Shown in pieces: positions 20,290 to 30,403 of a stretch of DNA of 33,806 bases. The notes under the pieces are model-generated. The model saw only the letters and a program-made list of their open reading frames with translations, ran no database searches and had not been told where the DNA came from. Source of the DNA: Holosporales bacterium (GTDB taxonomy: Bacteria; Pseudomonadota; Alphaproteobacteria; Paracaedibacterales; UBA11393); contig DPKF01000031.1 in the NCBI GenBank assembly GCA_003542655.1, positions 1 to 33,806 of the forward strand. The letters are read 5' to 3'. Made by a program: the position numbers and the translations under genes. Each line of letters opens with the position of its first letter. Positions within the stretch are counted from its first letter, which is position 1.

Positions 20290-21495
20290 TTATGGCAGTG
20301 CACAAACTGCAGGACAGCTGTTACCAATACTTGAGTATAGACTTTCAATCACAACGAAAGCCACCACAGCAGAAAAACTGATAATAAAGGTTGGATAATC
20401 ACAATTTCTTTTAACGATGGCAAATTCAATACGCAAAGCGCTCATAATGAAATACCCCATAATAAAGCTATAAGTTAAGATGCCCATCAAAGGTGTAAAA
20501 TCAAAGAATGGTAGTTTTCTAATAGCAAGACCGCCAACAATCATTGATGATAAAAATATTTGGCGTACTAAGCTAGAACGGCCAGAAAATGTATTTGCAA
20601 GCGTAATGGATTCACAAAATACCAAAGCACCAATCACAACTGTTATCATGATCAATTCAAAAGATCCACCTGATTTAAATAAAGTCTCTAAATGCAAGCC
20701 AAAGAAAAAATGCACAATACCTAAAATTGCTAGATTAGAACCATATAATAGGGGACCATGTGGCATTTCTTCAATCATATTGCGTGCTGCACGCTTTTCA
20801 AAAATATAGTTAAATACAAAGCCAAGGCTTAGTACACCAAAAACGACAAGCAATAAATGCTCTAAGTTTCCAAGATATAAATTTTTTATTTTTTTAGATG
20901 CAAACGGTAAATACTCTAAAACAAACGGAACGCCTTTAATTAACAAATATCCAAAAGAAGCGCCACTGATTATGGAATATCGCTTCCGTGAATCTGTAGA
21001 GAAAAATCCTTTTGCAAGTGCCGCAATCCATTGCATGGCAACAATCAACAATGCACAGGAAGCAACAAGTATAACACCATACGCATCTGCTGCTGCAGCT
21101 TCTTTTTTTGCAACCGAACGTTGTATTGGTTGTAATATTTCTGTTTTCAAGTCTTCATTTGTCAAAACTTCCACCTTGTTTGCGTTTACCGCTTCACCAG
21201 AATTGTCTGATTGTTGCGTTTCACTGTCAGGTAGGGCAGAAACGTCACCAGATGGCATATTTTGCTCACCATTCCCAGATGACGATGCATCGTATGGATT
21301 ATTAGGTGGCACGTCTCCATCCCCAGATGAAGGTTCTGATGAACCATAAGGATTACTAGAGGCTGCCTCACCATCTGCAGATGCTGATGTTCCATAAGGA
21401 TTATCTGCACTTGAATTCATCTGCCCCCCCTCATTCGCATCCGGAGCACTTGATTCAGCACTATTTCCATACATTCCATTTTCAGTTGTAGACAT
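20290..21495 (-). CDS. Polytopic membrane protein with a disordered N-terminal tail carrying NPY(G/D) repeats
   Basis: 401-aa ORF. The first roughly 140 aa are S/N/G/P/D-rich with NPYGTSAS, NPYGSSEPS and NNPYDASSS. The rest is about 7-8 hydrophobic helices. No family recognised. Confidence 0.6.
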   Translation of the reverse strand: MSTTENGMYGNSAESSAPDANEGGQMNSSADNPYGTSASADGEAASSNPYGSSEPSSGDGDVPPNNPYDASSSGNGEQNMPSGDVSALPDSETQQSDNSGEAVNANKVEVLTNEDLKTEILQPIQRSVAKKEAAAADAYGVILVASCALLIVAMQWIAALAKGFFSTDSRKRYSIISGASFGYLLIKGVPFVLEYLPFASKKIKNLYLGNLEHLLLVVFGVLSLGFVFNYIFEKRAARNMIEEMPHGPLLYGSNLAILGIVHFFFGLHLETLFKSGGSFELIMITVVIGALVFCESITLANTFSGRSSLVRQIFLSSMIVGGLAIRKLPFFDFTPLMGILTYSFIMGYFIMSALRIEFAIVKRNCDYPTFIISFSAVVAFVVIESLYSSIGNSCPAVCALP

Positions 21496-24424: not shown

Positions 24425-24931
24425 TCACAAATAGTCTTTTGCCCAATTTTCACTATAATATGCAGGGTCTTCGTGATAAAGCCGCCAAATAAATTGCTCA
24501 AAAGAATCTTCTATTTTAATGTTTGTATACACTGTATAAACAGCATTGGGATGAAGGCTCTCTGGTTTCATAATCAAAAAATTAGAGCTGTCATGAATTT
24601 CAAAAAAGGGAAGATCTCCGGGTTGTAACATTTCGTAGGTGTCTTGAGAAATTAATCCAGAATCATGACCATTTTTTACCATGTCTACAATCATGCTAGG
24701 AGGATTTATACGATTAACACTATAAAAGATGTAATCTTTGTCAAATTTTATAGGATGAGTTAAAAAACCATAACCAATTTCTCTATAAAATTGTCTTAAT
24801 TCACTTGGGAAAGTAATCCCTAATTCTTTTTCTGCTTTTTTAATTTCTATATCATCTATTCGATAAAAAGAATTACTGGGTTTGGTTAAATTTCTAGGCG
24901 AGTCCATAAACTGATTTAAATATTTATACAT
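24425..24931 (-). CDS. SMI1/KNR4 (SUKH-1) family immunity protein
   Basis: IDDIEIKKAEKELGITFPSELRQFYREIGYGFL is the SUKH/SMI1-KNR4 signature. I start it at ATG 24931 (MYKYLNQ), which has AAGGAG 7 nt upstream. The track start at 25039 would overlap the toxin gene by 97 nt. Confidence 0.8.
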   Translation of the reverse strand: MYKYLNQFMDSPRNLTKPSNSFYRIDDIEIKKAEKELGITFPSELRQFYREIGYGFLTHPIKFDKDYIFYSVNRINPPSMIVDMVKNGHDSGLISQDTYEMLQPGDLPFFEIHDSSNFLIMKPESLHPNAVYTVYTNIKIEDSFEQFIWRLYHEDPAYYSENWAKDYL

Positions 24932-24942
24932 TGCATAGCTCC

Positions 24943-25758
24943 TTATGATAAAGTTCTTAGAATTTCCATAAGCCGTGACGCTGATCCGTGCAAGATTTCT
25001 TGGTGCATTGGTGTGGCTGCTGGATGCATGTTCCACCATTCGTGAGGCCCTTTTACTTGTTGGGGAATTATGTGATGGGCTTGAAATTGTGTATCACTCT
25101 TAGCAATCAACTTTCCATCTTTACCAAGAACATCTTTTGTATACTTAGGCCAGTCTCGTACCTTGGTTGTGCCGCCCATATGTTCCCAATCTTTTATTAA
25201 TTTCTGCCTTGTAGCGGGAGTGAAATTATTTGAATGTGACGCTTTCTCGCCTACAGACAGTTTCTCAAATTGTTTGTTCTTTAAGCAATAGTCTATCAGC
25301 TGTTTTTTTTGCTCTATCGTAATTTTTCTACCTGTAGTTATTTCAACTTCTCTCAATGCTGTACGTAACTCTGTACCGGGAACTTCTCGTGCATTTCCAT
25401 TGGCTGCCGTTTGTTTAGCATTTTTTATGACCGCGTTTGCTTCTTTTTTTTGCATAATATGTTTTGCAAATACTTGTCCGGCCTTAAGGGCTGATTCAGC
25501 AGCAACCTGTACAGTGCTCTGCGGTGCCGCCGAAGACTTGACAGCAGCAGGTGCAGCTCCGTTATGTCCAGCAGCACCGCCTCTGCTTACTATACCACCT
25601 GTACCCTGTGCTTTCATAGAGCTTTGTGTTGGGATAGTATGGCCCATTGTCCTTGCGATGTCTGCCCTAACTGTGGTGGCACCTATGCTAACCAAAAGAC
25701 CTAAAAGGAGTCTGAAAAATAGATTGTAACGAAAACCTATCTTGTTTTGAAACGTCAT
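24943..25758 (-). CDS. Secreted HNH (beta-beta-alpha-Me) nuclease toxin, colicin-DNase/AHH-like
   Basis: Signal peptide (LFFRLLLGLLVSIGATTVRA). Ala/Gly-rich linker. The C-terminal FQAHHIIPQQVKGPHEWWNMHPAATPMHQEILH aligns by eye with the colicin E9 H-N-H motif [33 protein letters not shown] (recalled). A SUKH immunity gene follows. Confidence 0.75.
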   Translation of the reverse strand: MTFQNKIGFRYNLFFRLLLGLLVSIGATTVRADIARTMGHTIPTQSSMKAQGTGGIVSRGGAAGHNGAAPAAVKSSAAPQSTVQVAAESALKAGQVFAKHIMQKKEANAVIKNAKQTAANGNAREVPGTELRTALREVEITTGRKITIEQKKQLIDYCLKNKQFEKLSVGEKASHSNNFTPATRQKLIKDWEHMGGTTKVRDWPKYTKDVLGKDGKLIAKSDTQFQAHHIIPQQVKGPHEWWNMHPAATPMHQEILHGSASRLMEILRTLS

Positions 25759-25847
25759 AATGAGGTTTTTAGTCCTTTGTCGTGCTGGCCTCTAGTGCCG
25801 CGATTTCTTCCTCAGATTTAAGCAATTTTTTTAAATTGTTTATCCTA

Positions 25848-26594
25848 TCAATCATACAACCCACCAAGTTGTTTTGTAATAAGCTCTTTAGGCACAAGGG
25901 GATAGTCTACCATCACATCTAAGCCCTTAAAGCGTGCAAGATTCACAACAGCAAGTGGCCAAAAGGCGATCACCTCATCAACAGTGCCACCAAAAATGCC
26001 TTGGGGGGTGCTTAACCGTTTGTGACCCTTGATCATGGTAGCGAATCCAGAAAGGAACTTTTCCTTATCGTGATCGTAAATTGCTTGAAAGCAAAGCGCA
26101 TACCCAACATAGGATTTTAATCTTTTAGCAAATATTATTTCCATATCATTTAAATCTGCACGTGTACCATCTTGGCCCAGAATAAAAAGGCGAAAAGCTT
26201 TATGGCAGTGTTTTGCAAGTGGTCCAGTTTTTTTTAAGTTAATATTTAAAAACCTTTTCACTATATTTTTGATCAAATCTAAATCTTGGGTGCATAACGT
26301 TTCAAAGATTTTGTCAAAAGCTGGAGCGCTTACAAATTCATAATCTTCTGGATATTCACCTGCATCACGTTTATCAAGCATTTTGTTTTGATAATGCACA
26401 ACCTGTTTCATATGATCAATGAAACCCTGAACATCGTGATCCAGAACATAGGAACATACGGCGAAAAAACGGTGATCATCCATATACCAATACCATGTAC
26501 GTGGATCGTCTTCTCCTTTTTCTTCTTTTCTCTTGTTATGTTGCTCTAAATATTCAATCTTTAAATCGGATAATCTTTCTTGCAAATCTCCCAT
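25848..26594 (-). CDS. Putative immunity protein (family unassigned) paired with the truncated toxin domain upstream
   Basis: 248-aa cytoplasmic-looking, probably helical protein. Its ATG is 1 nt after the toxin stop, and an AGGAGA Shine-Dalgarno sits inside the toxin's last codons (CAATTAGGAGAATAATATG). The assignment rests on position only. Confidence 0.5.
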   Translation of the reverse strand: MGDLQERLSDLKIEYLEQHNKRKEEKGEDDPRTWYWYMDDHRFFAVCSYVLDHDVQGFIDHMKQVVHYQNKMLDKRDAGEYPEDYEFVSAPAFDKIFETLCTQDLDLIKNIVKRFLNINLKKTGPLAKHCHKAFRLFILGQDGTRADLNDMEIIFAKRLKSYVGYALCFQAIYDHDKEKFLSGFATMIKGHKRLSTPQGIFGGTVDEVIAFWPLAVVNLARFKGLDVMVDYPLVPKELITKQLGGLYD

Positions 26595-26595
26595 A

Positions 26596-27027
26596 TTATT
26601 CTCCTAATTGTGGGGCATGGGGCAAATCAACTTTCGTCCAAGAATTATGGCCACTTGCATCTGTGACATTCACACGACGACGGATTAAGCCTAGGTTATT
26701 TTCTAAAATTTTTGCTGTTGATTTTAATGTTGGATCTTCTATTTTTTTCATATCCCTGATCTTTGCTAAAACCCAAGGTTCACTCATTTGTGTAACCTCG
26801 TTAACATTTTTAGCCATGCTTGCATTTCCTGATGTTGCATATTTTGATTCTACAATAATAATGTCAGCGGGTACACCCGGTTTTTCCCATTTTACAAATA
26901 CACCATCAAACCCCTTATTACCTGGTAGTTTAGATTCAAGTTTTACATAACCGGCACGAAGCATCGTTGCTTCACCGGCTGCCTCTCCAATTGCCCCTTT
27001 AACTTGGGCAACACGGGCGTTTAACAT
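26596..27027 (-). CDS. 5'-truncated (orphan) toxin C-terminal domain with a PD-(D/E)xK restriction-endonuclease-like motif
   Basis: GAIGEAAGEATMLRAGY...GFDGVFVKW...ADIIIVESKY gives a D...ExK arrangement. The frame stays open upstream of the first Met into antisense IS630 sequence, with no SD. So the delivery part of the gene is missing. Confidence 0.55.
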   Translation of the reverse strand: MLNARVAQVKGAIGEAAGEATMLRAGYVKLESKLPGNKGFDGVFVKWEKPGVPADIIIVESKYATSGNASMAKNVNEVTQMSEPWVLAKIRDMKKIEDPTLKSTAKILENNLGLIRRRVNVTDASGHNSWTKVDLPHAPQLGE

Positions 27028-27029
27028 AG

Positions 27030-27481
27030 GTGTGGGGAGAGAAAGGAAAACGTCAGCGCATTTTAAAAGACCTTCGTTTTAAGTATACCTATATTTATGG
27101 TGCAATATGTCCGGAGCGCGATACGGGTGAGGCCATTATCGTTAATGAAGTTTCAAAAGTAGCTATGGAAAAACATCTGATGCTGTCAGTAAAATTATTC
27201 CAATAGATCGACATGCTCTCATGGTTATGGATAAAGCGCCGTGGCACAGATTTTTAAATGTTCCTAAAAATATCACGATTGTTCATTTACCTTCGTATAG
27301 TCCAGAACTGAATCCACATGAAAACATTTGGGAATATATGAAAAATAACTTTCTCTCAAATCGTGTGTTTAATACTGTGGATGATATCCTTGAGGCGTGT
27401 TGTGAGGCATGGAATAAACTTACTGCTGAGAAAGGACGTATCACTTCTATTGGAACTAGAACTTGGGCAAACATTACCTAA
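27030..27481 (+). pseudogene. IS630-family transposase, C-terminal part only, frameshifted
   Basis: My translation gives VWGEKGKRQRILKDLRFKYTYIYGAICPERDTGEAIIVNEVSKVAMEKHL in one frame. It then continues as DAVSKIIPIDRHALMVMDKAPWH...LPSYSPELNPHENIWEYMK (DDE catalytic region) in another frame. The switch is at about 27179. The N-terminal roughly 150 aa are missing. Confidence 0.8.
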
Positions 27482-27717
27482 AATTTTATGAAAATGGTAT
27501 GATAAGCATCTGGATACTTTTCAATATCCTGCTTTAGAGCATCCATATCTATTTTTGTGGCCGGCTTATGACGAGTGGCATGTGGTTCAATCTTTTTTGA
27601 CCAACGAAATAAGGTCGCCATAGAAATATTAAATAATTGGGAGATTTCTAGAAAGGTTAAATTTTGATCAGCTTTAATGCTAAAAATCTTGCGGCGCAAA
27701 TCTAAGGAGTAAGTCAT
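27478..27717 (-). pseudogene. IS630-family transposase, N-terminal HTH fragment only
   Basis: MTYSLDLRRKIFSIKADQNLTFLEISQLFNISMATLFRWSKK...LKQDIEKYPDAY matches IS630 N-terminal HTH regions. Similarity stops after PDAYH (about 27499), where it meets the end of the opposite-strand fragment. Confidence 0.8.
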
Positions 27718-27839
27718 GGAATAGTGGCTAAATAATATTATTATACCTCATTTTATACTGGTTTAGCTATATCATACACATAAAAACACAGAACCAGTAA
27801 AAATTTTTCATCCCGAATTGGGGCCTTGTGCAAGCGATG

Positions 27840-29296: not shown

Positions 29297-30403
29297 TCAC
29301 GAATTTAAAATAAAATTTAACATCATTGCTAAAGACTTCATCGCCCTATTACGGACGCCCTCTAAACAACCACCATTTTCTTTATAGTTTTCCATTATTT
29401 GCTGTAAAACAAGATATTTAAGCGTGCCAAAAGTGGTATCACCATCAAGCGCCTTAAGCTCATCTAAAATAGAAATTGTATAAGCCACAAGTGATAAAAC
29501 TTTAGGGCGATTTGCCGCTTGCATTACTGCACCCGCAATCCATCTTTCTCCTGCTTCAGCTGAAAAACCATGTTGCGCTTGTACGCTATCATCTGGAAAA
29601 TGGCTCATAAAACGAAAAAGCACTTGATAAACTTCAGAACGCTTAGGGCCTTCTGCTTCTGCTGCAGCTTCTTCCTTGTAGTCAGCCTTACCAAAACCCA
29701 TATCGTTTGCTACTTGTAATAATGCATCAATATTTGCTGCACAAAAATCGTCATGCTGATGCACATCACCAAAAGTATTAATCTGTGTCAGAACGGATGC
29801 AACAACTTGACGCATATCAGACACTTTAGGATGCCTGCGTGCAGATAACATTTTAATAACAACTAATTCTCTTGCTGCATTAGCAACAGCATATTGTGCT
29901 GGTAAAGGAATACCAAATAATACATGCTTAATATGGGCTATATCACTTGATGAAAAATGATCACCAAGAGCGGCAGTTATATTATCGGGACCAATCGCTT
30001 CCAACGCCCCTAAAATGATACCTGCCTGTTTTAATTTTTCTGCAAGAGATTCTGGCAATTCTGGTGCTGCATGTCTAACAGACCTTGTGCCTTCTGGCCT
30101 CACCGATAGTGCAGCAGGCGCAGCTGCTTCAGGATGTGCAAATAAAACGCTAGAAATAACTGCTAAATCATGCTGTGACAATCCGCTATCAGAAAATACA
30201 GCACGGACGTCCTCAGCATTATGAAATTGTCTTAAAACATCAGCGTGAATATCATTTTCTATCAGTTTGAACACTAATGCACTTGGTAGCCCCTCAATTC
30301 CATATTGTGCTGCAATAGATTGCTCTAGCGCATCATCATCTGATGCAAATACCTGTGTCATCAGTGTTGTAACGAACACCATTTTAAAAAAAACTTTTTT
30401 CAT
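29297..30403 (-). CDS. Secreted hypothetical protein with an internal roughly 52-aa duplication
   Basis: Signal peptide MKKVFFKMVFVTTLMTQVFA. Two related segments, LPSALVFKL...SQHDLAVISSVLFAHP and LPESLAEKL...SSSDIAHIKHVLFGIP. Good AAGGA SD. No family recognised. Confidence 0.6.
   Translation of the reverse strand: MKKVFFKMVFVTTLMTQVFASDDDALEQSIAAQYGIEGLPSALVFKLIENDIHADVLRQFHNAEDVRAVFSDSGLSQHDLAVISSVLFAHPEAAAPAALSVRPEGTRSVRHAAPELPESLAEKLKQAGIILGALEAIGPDNITAALGDHFSSSDIAHIKHVLFGIPLPAQYAVANAARELVVIKMLSARRHPKVSDMRQVVASVLTQINTFGDVHQHDDFCAANIDALLQVANDMGFGKADYKEEAAAEAEGPKRSEVYQVLFRFMSHFPDDSVQAQHGFSAEAGERWIAGAVMQAANRPKVLSLVAYTISILDELKALDGDTTFGTLKYLVLQQIMENYKENGGCLEGVRNRAMKSLAMMLNFILNS

Follow-up and report, generated by a model that had tools for sequence, protein, structure and literature searches.

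What remains of a polymorphic toxin once its delivery region is gone, and whether such a remnant still works as a toxin, is the question raised by two adjacent open reading frames (ORFs) of 143 and 248 amino acids (aa) in a Holosporales bacterium. The two ORFs lie next to debris of IS630-type insertion sequences (IS) in contig DPKF01000031.1 of a metagenome-assembled genome (MAG; assembly GCA_003542655.1), whose positions 1 to 33,806 represent the window considered here, i.e. the whole stretch of 33,806 nucleotides (nt). The locus is very likely a decayed polymorphic-toxin remnant, in which an Imm49-paired Tox-REase nuclease lost its carrier by a deletion into a dead IS. The coordinates of all features are collected in Table 1.

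The 143-aa product is predicted, by its conserved residues and its modelled structure, to be a toxin domain that has the fold of restriction endonucleases (REases) and whose catalytic domain is whole. Indeed, the ORF contains GE...G, GFDGVF and IIIVESKY together with the complete PD-(D/E)xK set (K10, E15, D41, E60-S-K62, Q80 and W85). In a family alignment of 27 sequences, the invariant positions are G26, G39, D41, E60, S61, K62, G67, Q80, W85 and L108, to which K10 and E15 come close. The AlphaFold2 (AF2) model, obtained with a mean predicted local distance difference test (pLDDT) of 93.7 and a predicted template modelling score (pTM) of 0.88, has an alpha-beta-beta-beta-alpha-beta core, with E15 in helix 2-24, D41 just before strand 42-49 and E60-K62 in strand 52-63. 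When the model is compared by Foldseek with the PDB, the best matches are all PD-(D/E)xK proteins, in support of the REase fold that a first-pass annotation, made by reading the DNA, had proposed. They include a SPARDA nuclease domain (E 1.4e-3, probability 1.0, template modelling score (TM) 0.44) and, further down, SfsA, Hjc, HincII, MspJI, HamA and the CdiA-CT 4g6v; the E-values are marginal. Searches of Pfam, NCBIfam and PADLOC with the domain give no significant match, only sub-threshold noise (Ail_Lom; HamA/DUF1837 at E around 0.02); the HamA/DUF1837 hint fits the PD-(D/E)xK superfamily, yet says nothing on membership. A profile search of PDB sequences returns a single marginal match, 9waq_B 'VP14465' (E 0.044). 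In an intact relative, the toxin would kill the target cell by a metal-dependent cleavage of nucleic acid, probably DNA.

The domain is widespread and sits at the end of large carriers. A hidden Markov model (HMM) search of a library of 1.84 billion representative proteins, clustered at 50% identity, finds it in 337 clusters at E<=1e-3 and in 129 clusters at E<=1e-10, and, of 155 matched domains, 119 end at most 15 residues from the C-terminus. Among the carriers are a VgrG-DUF6531-RHS protein of 2349 aa (P0104), RHS proteins of 3730 and 807 aa (P0058 and P0041) and a DUF637/FhaB-like protein (P0028), while the closest relatives have a PT-VENN pre-toxin region ahead of the domain. In particular, the relative in locus L003 is a 420-aa protein with PT-VENN (21.1 bits, cut-off 20.3), and in L001 the domain terminates a protein of more than 896 aa. 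The homologues are almost always placed, as anticipated at first reading, at the C-termini of large toxins of the VgrG-RHS, RHS, DUF637/FhaB-like and PT-VENN types. Stand-alone toxin-domain frames of 119-167 codons occur in 7 of 30 genome loci, and many short family proteins exist besides. The domain has no Pfam, NCBIfam or PADLOC model of its own, and its members are called hypothetical in every naming source except for one JGI label.

A second copy of the domain, 78% identical, is encoded in the same MAG on a contig of 2710 nt (P0002, DIC42_06900); its N-terminal region is longer than and different from that of the window copy and runs off the contig. A further family member, P0116, comes from a collection of eukaryote transcriptomes (eukprot), and could be either endosymbiont contamination or a transferred gene; Tox-REase-1 and Tox-REase-6 have been recorded in heterolobosean and alveolate eukaryotes (Zhang et al.).

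The upstream end of the window copy is where the toxin gene is broken. At the DNA level, the window can be aligned with its closest relative, L003, from the end of the immunity gene up to 27013, where the similarity stops (25860-27013; 84.6% over 1158 nt). The joint carries TG-N-TGCCC, which is common to both parents: L003 has TGATGCCC in the toxin gene, and L036 has TGCTGCCC in antisense to its IS transposase gene. The plus-strand translation from around 27006, LGQHGRLT*VWGEKGKRQR, matches the transposase interior GQQGRLTRIWGEKGKRIR of L035 and L036, and its part LGQHGRLT*VWGEKGKR matches GQQGRLTRIWGEKGKR of these two loci. Since the crossover between toxin and IS falls at 27006-27013, Met1 to about Val6 of the 143-aa ORF are antisense IS sequence. 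Codons 1-6 indeed bear no resemblance to the toxin relatives, in which these positions read PYKKSY(V/I)D, and the genuine toxin part begins with Ala7, three positions ahead of K10, the first conserved residue. The ATG of the toxin ORF (27027-27025) shares its T with the TAG (27027-29) that breaks the transposase frame. As the joint lies inside the transposase gene, it was not made by transposition itself, and the alignments identify the break as a microhomology-mediated deletion into a nested dead IS rather than a simple insertion.

These results refine the first-pass annotation, according to which the toxin had been cut off by an IS630 fragment beginning at about 27030, with the reading frame open upstream of Met1 into the antisense of the IS. 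IS630 debris is present at the break, but IS sequence is found already from the 8-nt junction onwards, including Met1 to about Val6, and the deletion enters the interior of the transposase gene instead of marking an IS end or an insertion junction. Similarly, the frame above Met1 is open, but for 17 codons only, after which it meets a TAA. The claim that only the toxic tip of a larger gene survives holds, as the homologues continue upstream while the window has IS sequence above residue 7.

The debris belongs to the IS630 family, as first read, but consists of two different fragments on opposite strands. The first, IS-A, shares 68% and 60% aa identity with L035 and L036, respectively, over 149 residues; it lacks the first ~600 nt of the element (ORF1/HTH, i.e. 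the helix-turn-helix part, and the left end) and, besides the in-frame TAG, has a frameshift near 27200. Both L035 and L036 conserve the right end of IS-A, ...TTTTATGAAAATGGTAT. The second, IS-B, is broken by the right end of IS-A and has its own outer end somewhere in 27718-27835, next to bolA. Neither is intact, in that a complete HTH + DDE frame with both terminal repeats is found in neither of them. As in IS630/Tc1-mariner elements, the DDE_3 and HTH_Tnp_IS630 domains score above threshold and the relatives are 60-68% identical, although here they occur as two dead, oppositely oriented fragments of different elements. The possibility that the two fragments are one inverted element was considered and dropped, because the N-terminal region of the HTH fragment is unlike ORF1 of the DDE fragment's relatives (L035/L036) and because the conserved right end of the DDE fragment cleanly abuts the HTH fragment.

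The evidence for the role of the 248-aa gene comes from its pairing with the toxin domain across genomes. Among 30 loci of species-representative genomes from at least seven phyla that encode the toxin domain, an ORF lies directly 3' of the domain in 26, and this ORF matches Imm49 (E<=1e-3) in 20 of the 26. The downstream ORFs are mostly 238-256 aa long, and the hosts of these loci include Verrucomicrobiota, Planctomycetota, Bacteroidota, Firmicutes, and beta- and gammaproteobacteria, among them a Coxiella MAG. The order of toxin and then Imm49 is also found in seven loci whose identities to the window pair are, for toxin and immunity protein respectively, 80% and 86% (L003), 76% and 69% (L055), 75% and 67% (L056), 52% and 55% (L059), 49% and 46% (L001), 39% and 28% (L061), and 41% and 27% (L063). 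The two identities thus co-vary over the seven loci, as cognate pairs would, and on these comparisons the downstream gene is taken to be the cognate immunity gene of the toxin domain, whose product would block the toxin by direct binding.

The protein itself is, by sequence, a divergent Imm49 of a Holosporales subfamily. Imm49 (PF15575, formerly DUF556) is the sole Pfam family that it matches, with 27.2 bits and E 3.4e-6, and all ten of its homologues (45-86% identical) match Imm49 alone, at best with E 9.6e-10. In addition, a Vibrio vulnificus Imm49 of equal length, encoded in the same gene order, shares 26% identity with the window protein (E 3e-25). The AF2 model of the window protein (pLDDT 75.7) consists of 12 helices, with no strands; Imm49 has been described as 'All alpha' (Zhang et al. 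2012, PMC3482391). Foldseek finds no significant match for this model in the PDB, with generic helical-repeat and tetratricopeptide-repeat (TPR) proteins appearing at E>0.3, and the sequence has no NCBIfam or PADLOC match. The first-pass annotation had seen in this gene an immunity partner and a candidate novel family; the first part stood, the second did not.

A shortened relative of the immunity protein is found in L058:1366-2888, where P0008, an Imm49 homologue of 209 aa truncated at the N-terminus and 70% identical to the window protein, is encoded by a gene with a 4-nt overlap with the end of an alcohol-dehydrogenase gene. As no toxin is nearby, P0008 represents a true orphan immunity remnant.

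The pairing also places the toxin within known clades. In the survey of Zhang et al. 2012 (Biol Direct 7:18; PMC3482391), Imm49 is the partner of Tox-REase-1 and Tox-REase-6, whose conserved residues are E, D, ExK and Q in the former and E, D, ExK, Q and Y in the latter. E15, D41, E60-x-K62 and Q80 of the window copy fit the pattern of both (PMC3482391, Table 2), and Y27 or the aromatic residue at position 63 are possible counterparts of the extra Y of Tox-REase-6. The toxin would belong to the Imm49-paired clade, as a member of Tox-REase-6 or possibly of Tox-REase-1.

Several relatives illustrate the settings in which the pair occurs. In Vibrio vulnificus (JAQZXL010000001.1; L061:1-9226), a type VI secretion system (T6SS) locus carries Hcp, VgrG, PAAR, a 302-aa gene, Rhs (1386 aa), a 92-aa gene, a 157-aa gene and Imm49; the 157-aa gene encodes the toxin domain alone (39% identical, E 3e-32) and the Imm49 protein has 248 aa. 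In L060, the sister contig of L061, a DDE_Tnp_1 transposase gene comes after Imm49. The same layout was labelled 'PID + REase-6 + Imm49' in V. parahaemolyticus in a paper marked as retracted (PMC6156420), whose co-authors include the describers of the family and which reports that Imm49 neutralises a Vibrio REase-6; it is the sole experimental report found and, being retracted, is used here as a pointer to the label only. Arrays of modules are also seen, with a REase, Imm49, a 445-aa PT-VENN module (unidentified C-terminal domain) and Imm26 in L056:2-2868, and an Ntox28 end, a 187-aa partner gene, a PT-VENN-REase module and Imm49 in L003:2-3410. Finally, a Hahellaceae MAG (JACKOE010000004.1; L063:4142-9293) has an RHS fragment followed by an oppositely oriented IS66 of three genes, an ORF of 178 aa with the toxin domain and a 248-aa Imm49, and is an independent case of an IS between toxin tip and carrier. 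Since stand-alone copies of the domain are common and L063 provides this second case, toxin tips severed by IS appear as a recurrent outcome.

Table 1. Features of the toxin/IS island in the window (position 1 is the first letter of the stretch)
Feature	Coordinates	Strand	Basis and remarks
Toxin-remnant ORF, 143 aa	26596-27027	minus	ORF list; NCBI: DIC42_01000, hypothetical protein, Holosporales bacterium MAG
Codons Met1 to Val6 of the 143-aa ORF	27010-27027	minus	Antisense IS630-type transposase, not toxin
Deletion junction, 8-nt microhomology	27006-27013	minus-strand letters TGTTGCCC	Four- and six-way DNA alignments
Toxin-derived coding part, ~Ala7 to Glu143 + TAA	26596-27009	minus	Homologue alignments begin at residue 7-10
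Ribosome-binding site of the immunity gene, AGGAGA	26600-26605	minus	Direct reading; within toxin codons 141-143
Immunity ORF, 248 aa, divergent Imm49	25848-26594	minus	Pfam; NCBI: DIC42_00995, hypothetical protein, Holosporales bacterium MAG
IS-A, 3' part of an IS630-family element (DDE_3 region)	27006 to ~27500	plus	Pfam DDE_3, 42.4 bits
IS-B, 5' fragment of a different IS630-family element, ~72 codons	~27501-27717	minus	Pfam HTH_Tnp_IS630, 51 bits
Neighbouring second toxin candidate, 271 aa	24943-25758	minus	Signal-peptide-like N-terminus; C-terminal AHH/HNH-like motif AHHIIP
SUKH-1 (SMI1/KNR4) immunity gene of the second pair	24425-24931	minus	Pfam SMI1_KNR4, 44.7 bits; SUKH_6, 39.2 bits

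The two genes are arranged very differently with respect to translation. The immunity ATG (26594-26592) lies 1 nt past the toxin TAA (26598-26596), with AGGAGA 5 nt 5' of it, and from this arrangement the immunity gene is read as translationally coupled to the toxin ORF. At the toxin ATG, there is neither a Shine-Dalgarno (SD) sequence nor any purine-rich stretch 5', and a pyrimidine run is found instead (TTTCTCTCCCCACACCT-ATG). The first-pass annotation had read all of these features correctly, i.e. both ORFs, the motif strings, the coupling, the AGGAGA site and the missing SD.

Starting from what is established, namely family membership, fold, junction and pairing, a history of the locus can be proposed. 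The ancestral gene, of a contact-dependent or secreted polymorphic toxin, would have comprised a delivery region, a PT-VENN-type pre-toxin linker and the C-terminal PD-(D/E)xK nuclease, with the coupled Imm49 gene next to it. IS-B may have inserted upstream of, or within, the toxin gene, and IS-A would then have inserted into IS-B. A single microhomology deletion would finally have stripped the toxin gene of its whole 5' part, IS-A of its left part and IS-B of its 3' part, leaving a chimeric ORF in which six antisense-IS codons would provide an accidental ATG, followed by the intact catalytic domain and the immunity gene. The locus is considered a remnant and not a complete polymorphic toxin system because antisense IS sequence lies above residue 7 and the frame is closed 17 codons above Met1. 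The toxin stub would not be exportable and, owing to the missing delivery region, the missing SD and the accidental ATG, is most likely inactive or translated poorly, if at all. The immunity gene, which has retained its own SD, could, if still transcribed, neutralise the same toxin when delivered by relatives, thus working as an orphan immunity gene.

Some points weigh against this reading and should be kept in mind. The joint is known from a single MAG contig. The Imm49 score of the window protein is just under the Pfam gathering threshold of 30.1, and neither Tox-REase-1 nor Tox-REase-6 has a Pfam model by which to tell them apart. When compared with L003 (dS around 0.55), the toxin has a ratio of non-synonymous to synonymous change (dN/dS) of 0.215 and the immunity gene one of 0.176, with no decay visible, and the intact catalytic domain together with the value of 0.215 would also fit a still-functional toxin; as divergence at a dS of 0.55 mostly predates the truncation, dN/dS can neither date the deletion nor show present function, and the comparison with the more distant L001 is saturated. 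Finally, a scan for promoters and terminators is at chance level (13 sites against 11.2 +/- 3.6).

The still-functional toxin would take its most explicit form if the ORF were expressed from the ATG supplied by the IS, so that the pair acts inside the cell as a toxin-antitoxin-like addiction module that kills the cell upon loss of the immunity gene and thereby stabilises the locus. The entire catalytic domain with all its invariant residues, the in-frame ATG, the tight coupling of an immunity gene with a good SD, and the lack of excess non-synonymous change in the toxin as compared with its partner are all compatible with such a module. It is nonetheless an unlikely explanation, as the toxin ATG is accidental antisense IS sequence that has no SD and no promoter signal above chance, stand-alone toxin-domain cassettes are common in the family and usually taken to be silent or to serve recombination, and an addiction module is not needed to explain why the immunity gene was retained. 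A bolder version, in which the deletion turned what had been an exported toxin's tip into a cytoplasmic nuclease with no leader that, with Imm49, forms a newborn toxin-antitoxin-like module in an endosymbiont genome, is improbable; if true, it would offer a snapshot of polymorphic-toxin cassettes seeding toxin-antitoxin systems.

A different function is envisaged if the locus is a native orphan cassette, kept as a donor whose recombination into a full-length toxin gene elsewhere switches the toxin type, as in orphan cdiA-CT/cdiI or rhs-CT modules. The close relatives L003 and L056 carry arrays of toxin tips and immunity genes, and the same MAG encodes the second domain copy P0002. However, the orphan modules of the relatives keep a PT-VENN/linker region of ~280 aa, i.e. 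the upstream homology for recombination, that is gone here. Since IS sequence lies above residue 7, only one-sided homology is left; a donor role is unlikely.

It is less likely still that the joint between toxin and IS is an assembly artefact of the metagenome contig. The contig is the only record of the sequence (one cluster member) and IS copies are classic sites of misassembly, but the ~8 nt shared at the joint are far below the k-mer overlap of assemblers, the joint lies within a unique toxin gene and an IS interior instead of at a repeat boundary, and the joint between IS-A and IS-B is a clean IS end. Finally, that the 248-aa gene founds a novel immunity family, as its slightly sub-threshold Pfam score and the lack of NCBIfam, PADLOC and significant PDB structural matches might suggest, is refuted to the point of deserving almost no credence by Imm49 being the sole Pfam match of the protein and of its 10 close homologues, by the similarity to the equal-length Vibrio vulnificus protein, and by the fact that the pairing of Imm49 with a REase is already published (PMC3482391).

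The decayed remnant is part of a larger toxin/IS island that spans ~24425-27835 and is flanked by rpoZ and by bolA/lpxC; the composition profile of the window gives no clear foreign-DNA signal over the island. Next to the remnant lies a second pair. Its 271-aa toxin candidate scores 16.7 bits for HNH and 13 bits for AHH in Pfam, both below the cut-offs, so that the assignment is weak. The SUKH-1 gene that accompanies it probably starts, judging from an AAGGAG 7 nt upstream, at the ATG at 24931 and not at the start of the 204-aa ORF. Elsewhere in the window, two minus-strand proteins, one of 368 aa with a signal-peptide-like start (29297-30403) and one of 401 aa (20290-21495), have no Pfam match at E<=1e-3.

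Orphan cdiA-CT/cdiI and rhs-CT modules consist of a toxin tip without a delivery domain followed by an immunity gene, often with debris of mobile elements nearby, and typically keep some pre-toxin region (VENN or PT-VENN) that permits recombination with the main gene. The window locus has the layout of such a module, i.e. toxin tip and immunity gene, but its pre-toxin region is lost. With the Burkholderia pseudomallei CdiA-CT/CdiI (PDB 4g6v), the toxin shares the superfamily fold and the role as a delivered toxin; however, the structures match weakly (E 0.15, TM 0.29), the sequences are not similar, and the Burkholderia toxin is paired with CdiI, an immunity protein unrelated to Imm49. By structure, the window toxin is closest to the SPARDA nuclease domains, which are defence nucleases and not toxins. 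The closest likeness is with the Tox-REase-6/-1 systems paired with Imm49 (PMC3482391), which have the same fold and the same E/D/ExK/Q residues, form the C-terminal end of RHS, filamentous-haemagglutinin and other carriers of type V (T5SS), type VI and further secretion systems, and are followed by an all-alpha Imm49; the window copy differs from them in lacking the carrier and pre-toxin regions and in having antisense IS sequence as its first six codons.

All in all, the locus is an ordinary decayed example of a known toxin-immunity system and leaves current understanding unchanged, the mapped deletion that created a chimeric ORF being its sole, mildly instructive feature. At the level of annotation, both hypothetical proteins can now be named, DIC42_01000 as a truncated Tox-REase nuclease domain of the Imm49-partnered clade and DIC42_00995 as an Imm49 immunity protein, and the presence of a toxin domain in 337 clusters points to a gap in the domain libraries. 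The base-level junction documents the erosion of toxin loci in IS-rich endosymbiont genomes, in this case by a deletion that fortuitously made the start of an ORF. Odyssella, an intracellular member of the Holosporales, has been reported to keep toxin-immunity pairs for inter-bacterial conflict (Zhang et al.), and the window pair, together with the neighbouring AHH-like/SUKH pair, adds to the conflict loci found in Holosporales despite their intracellular life.

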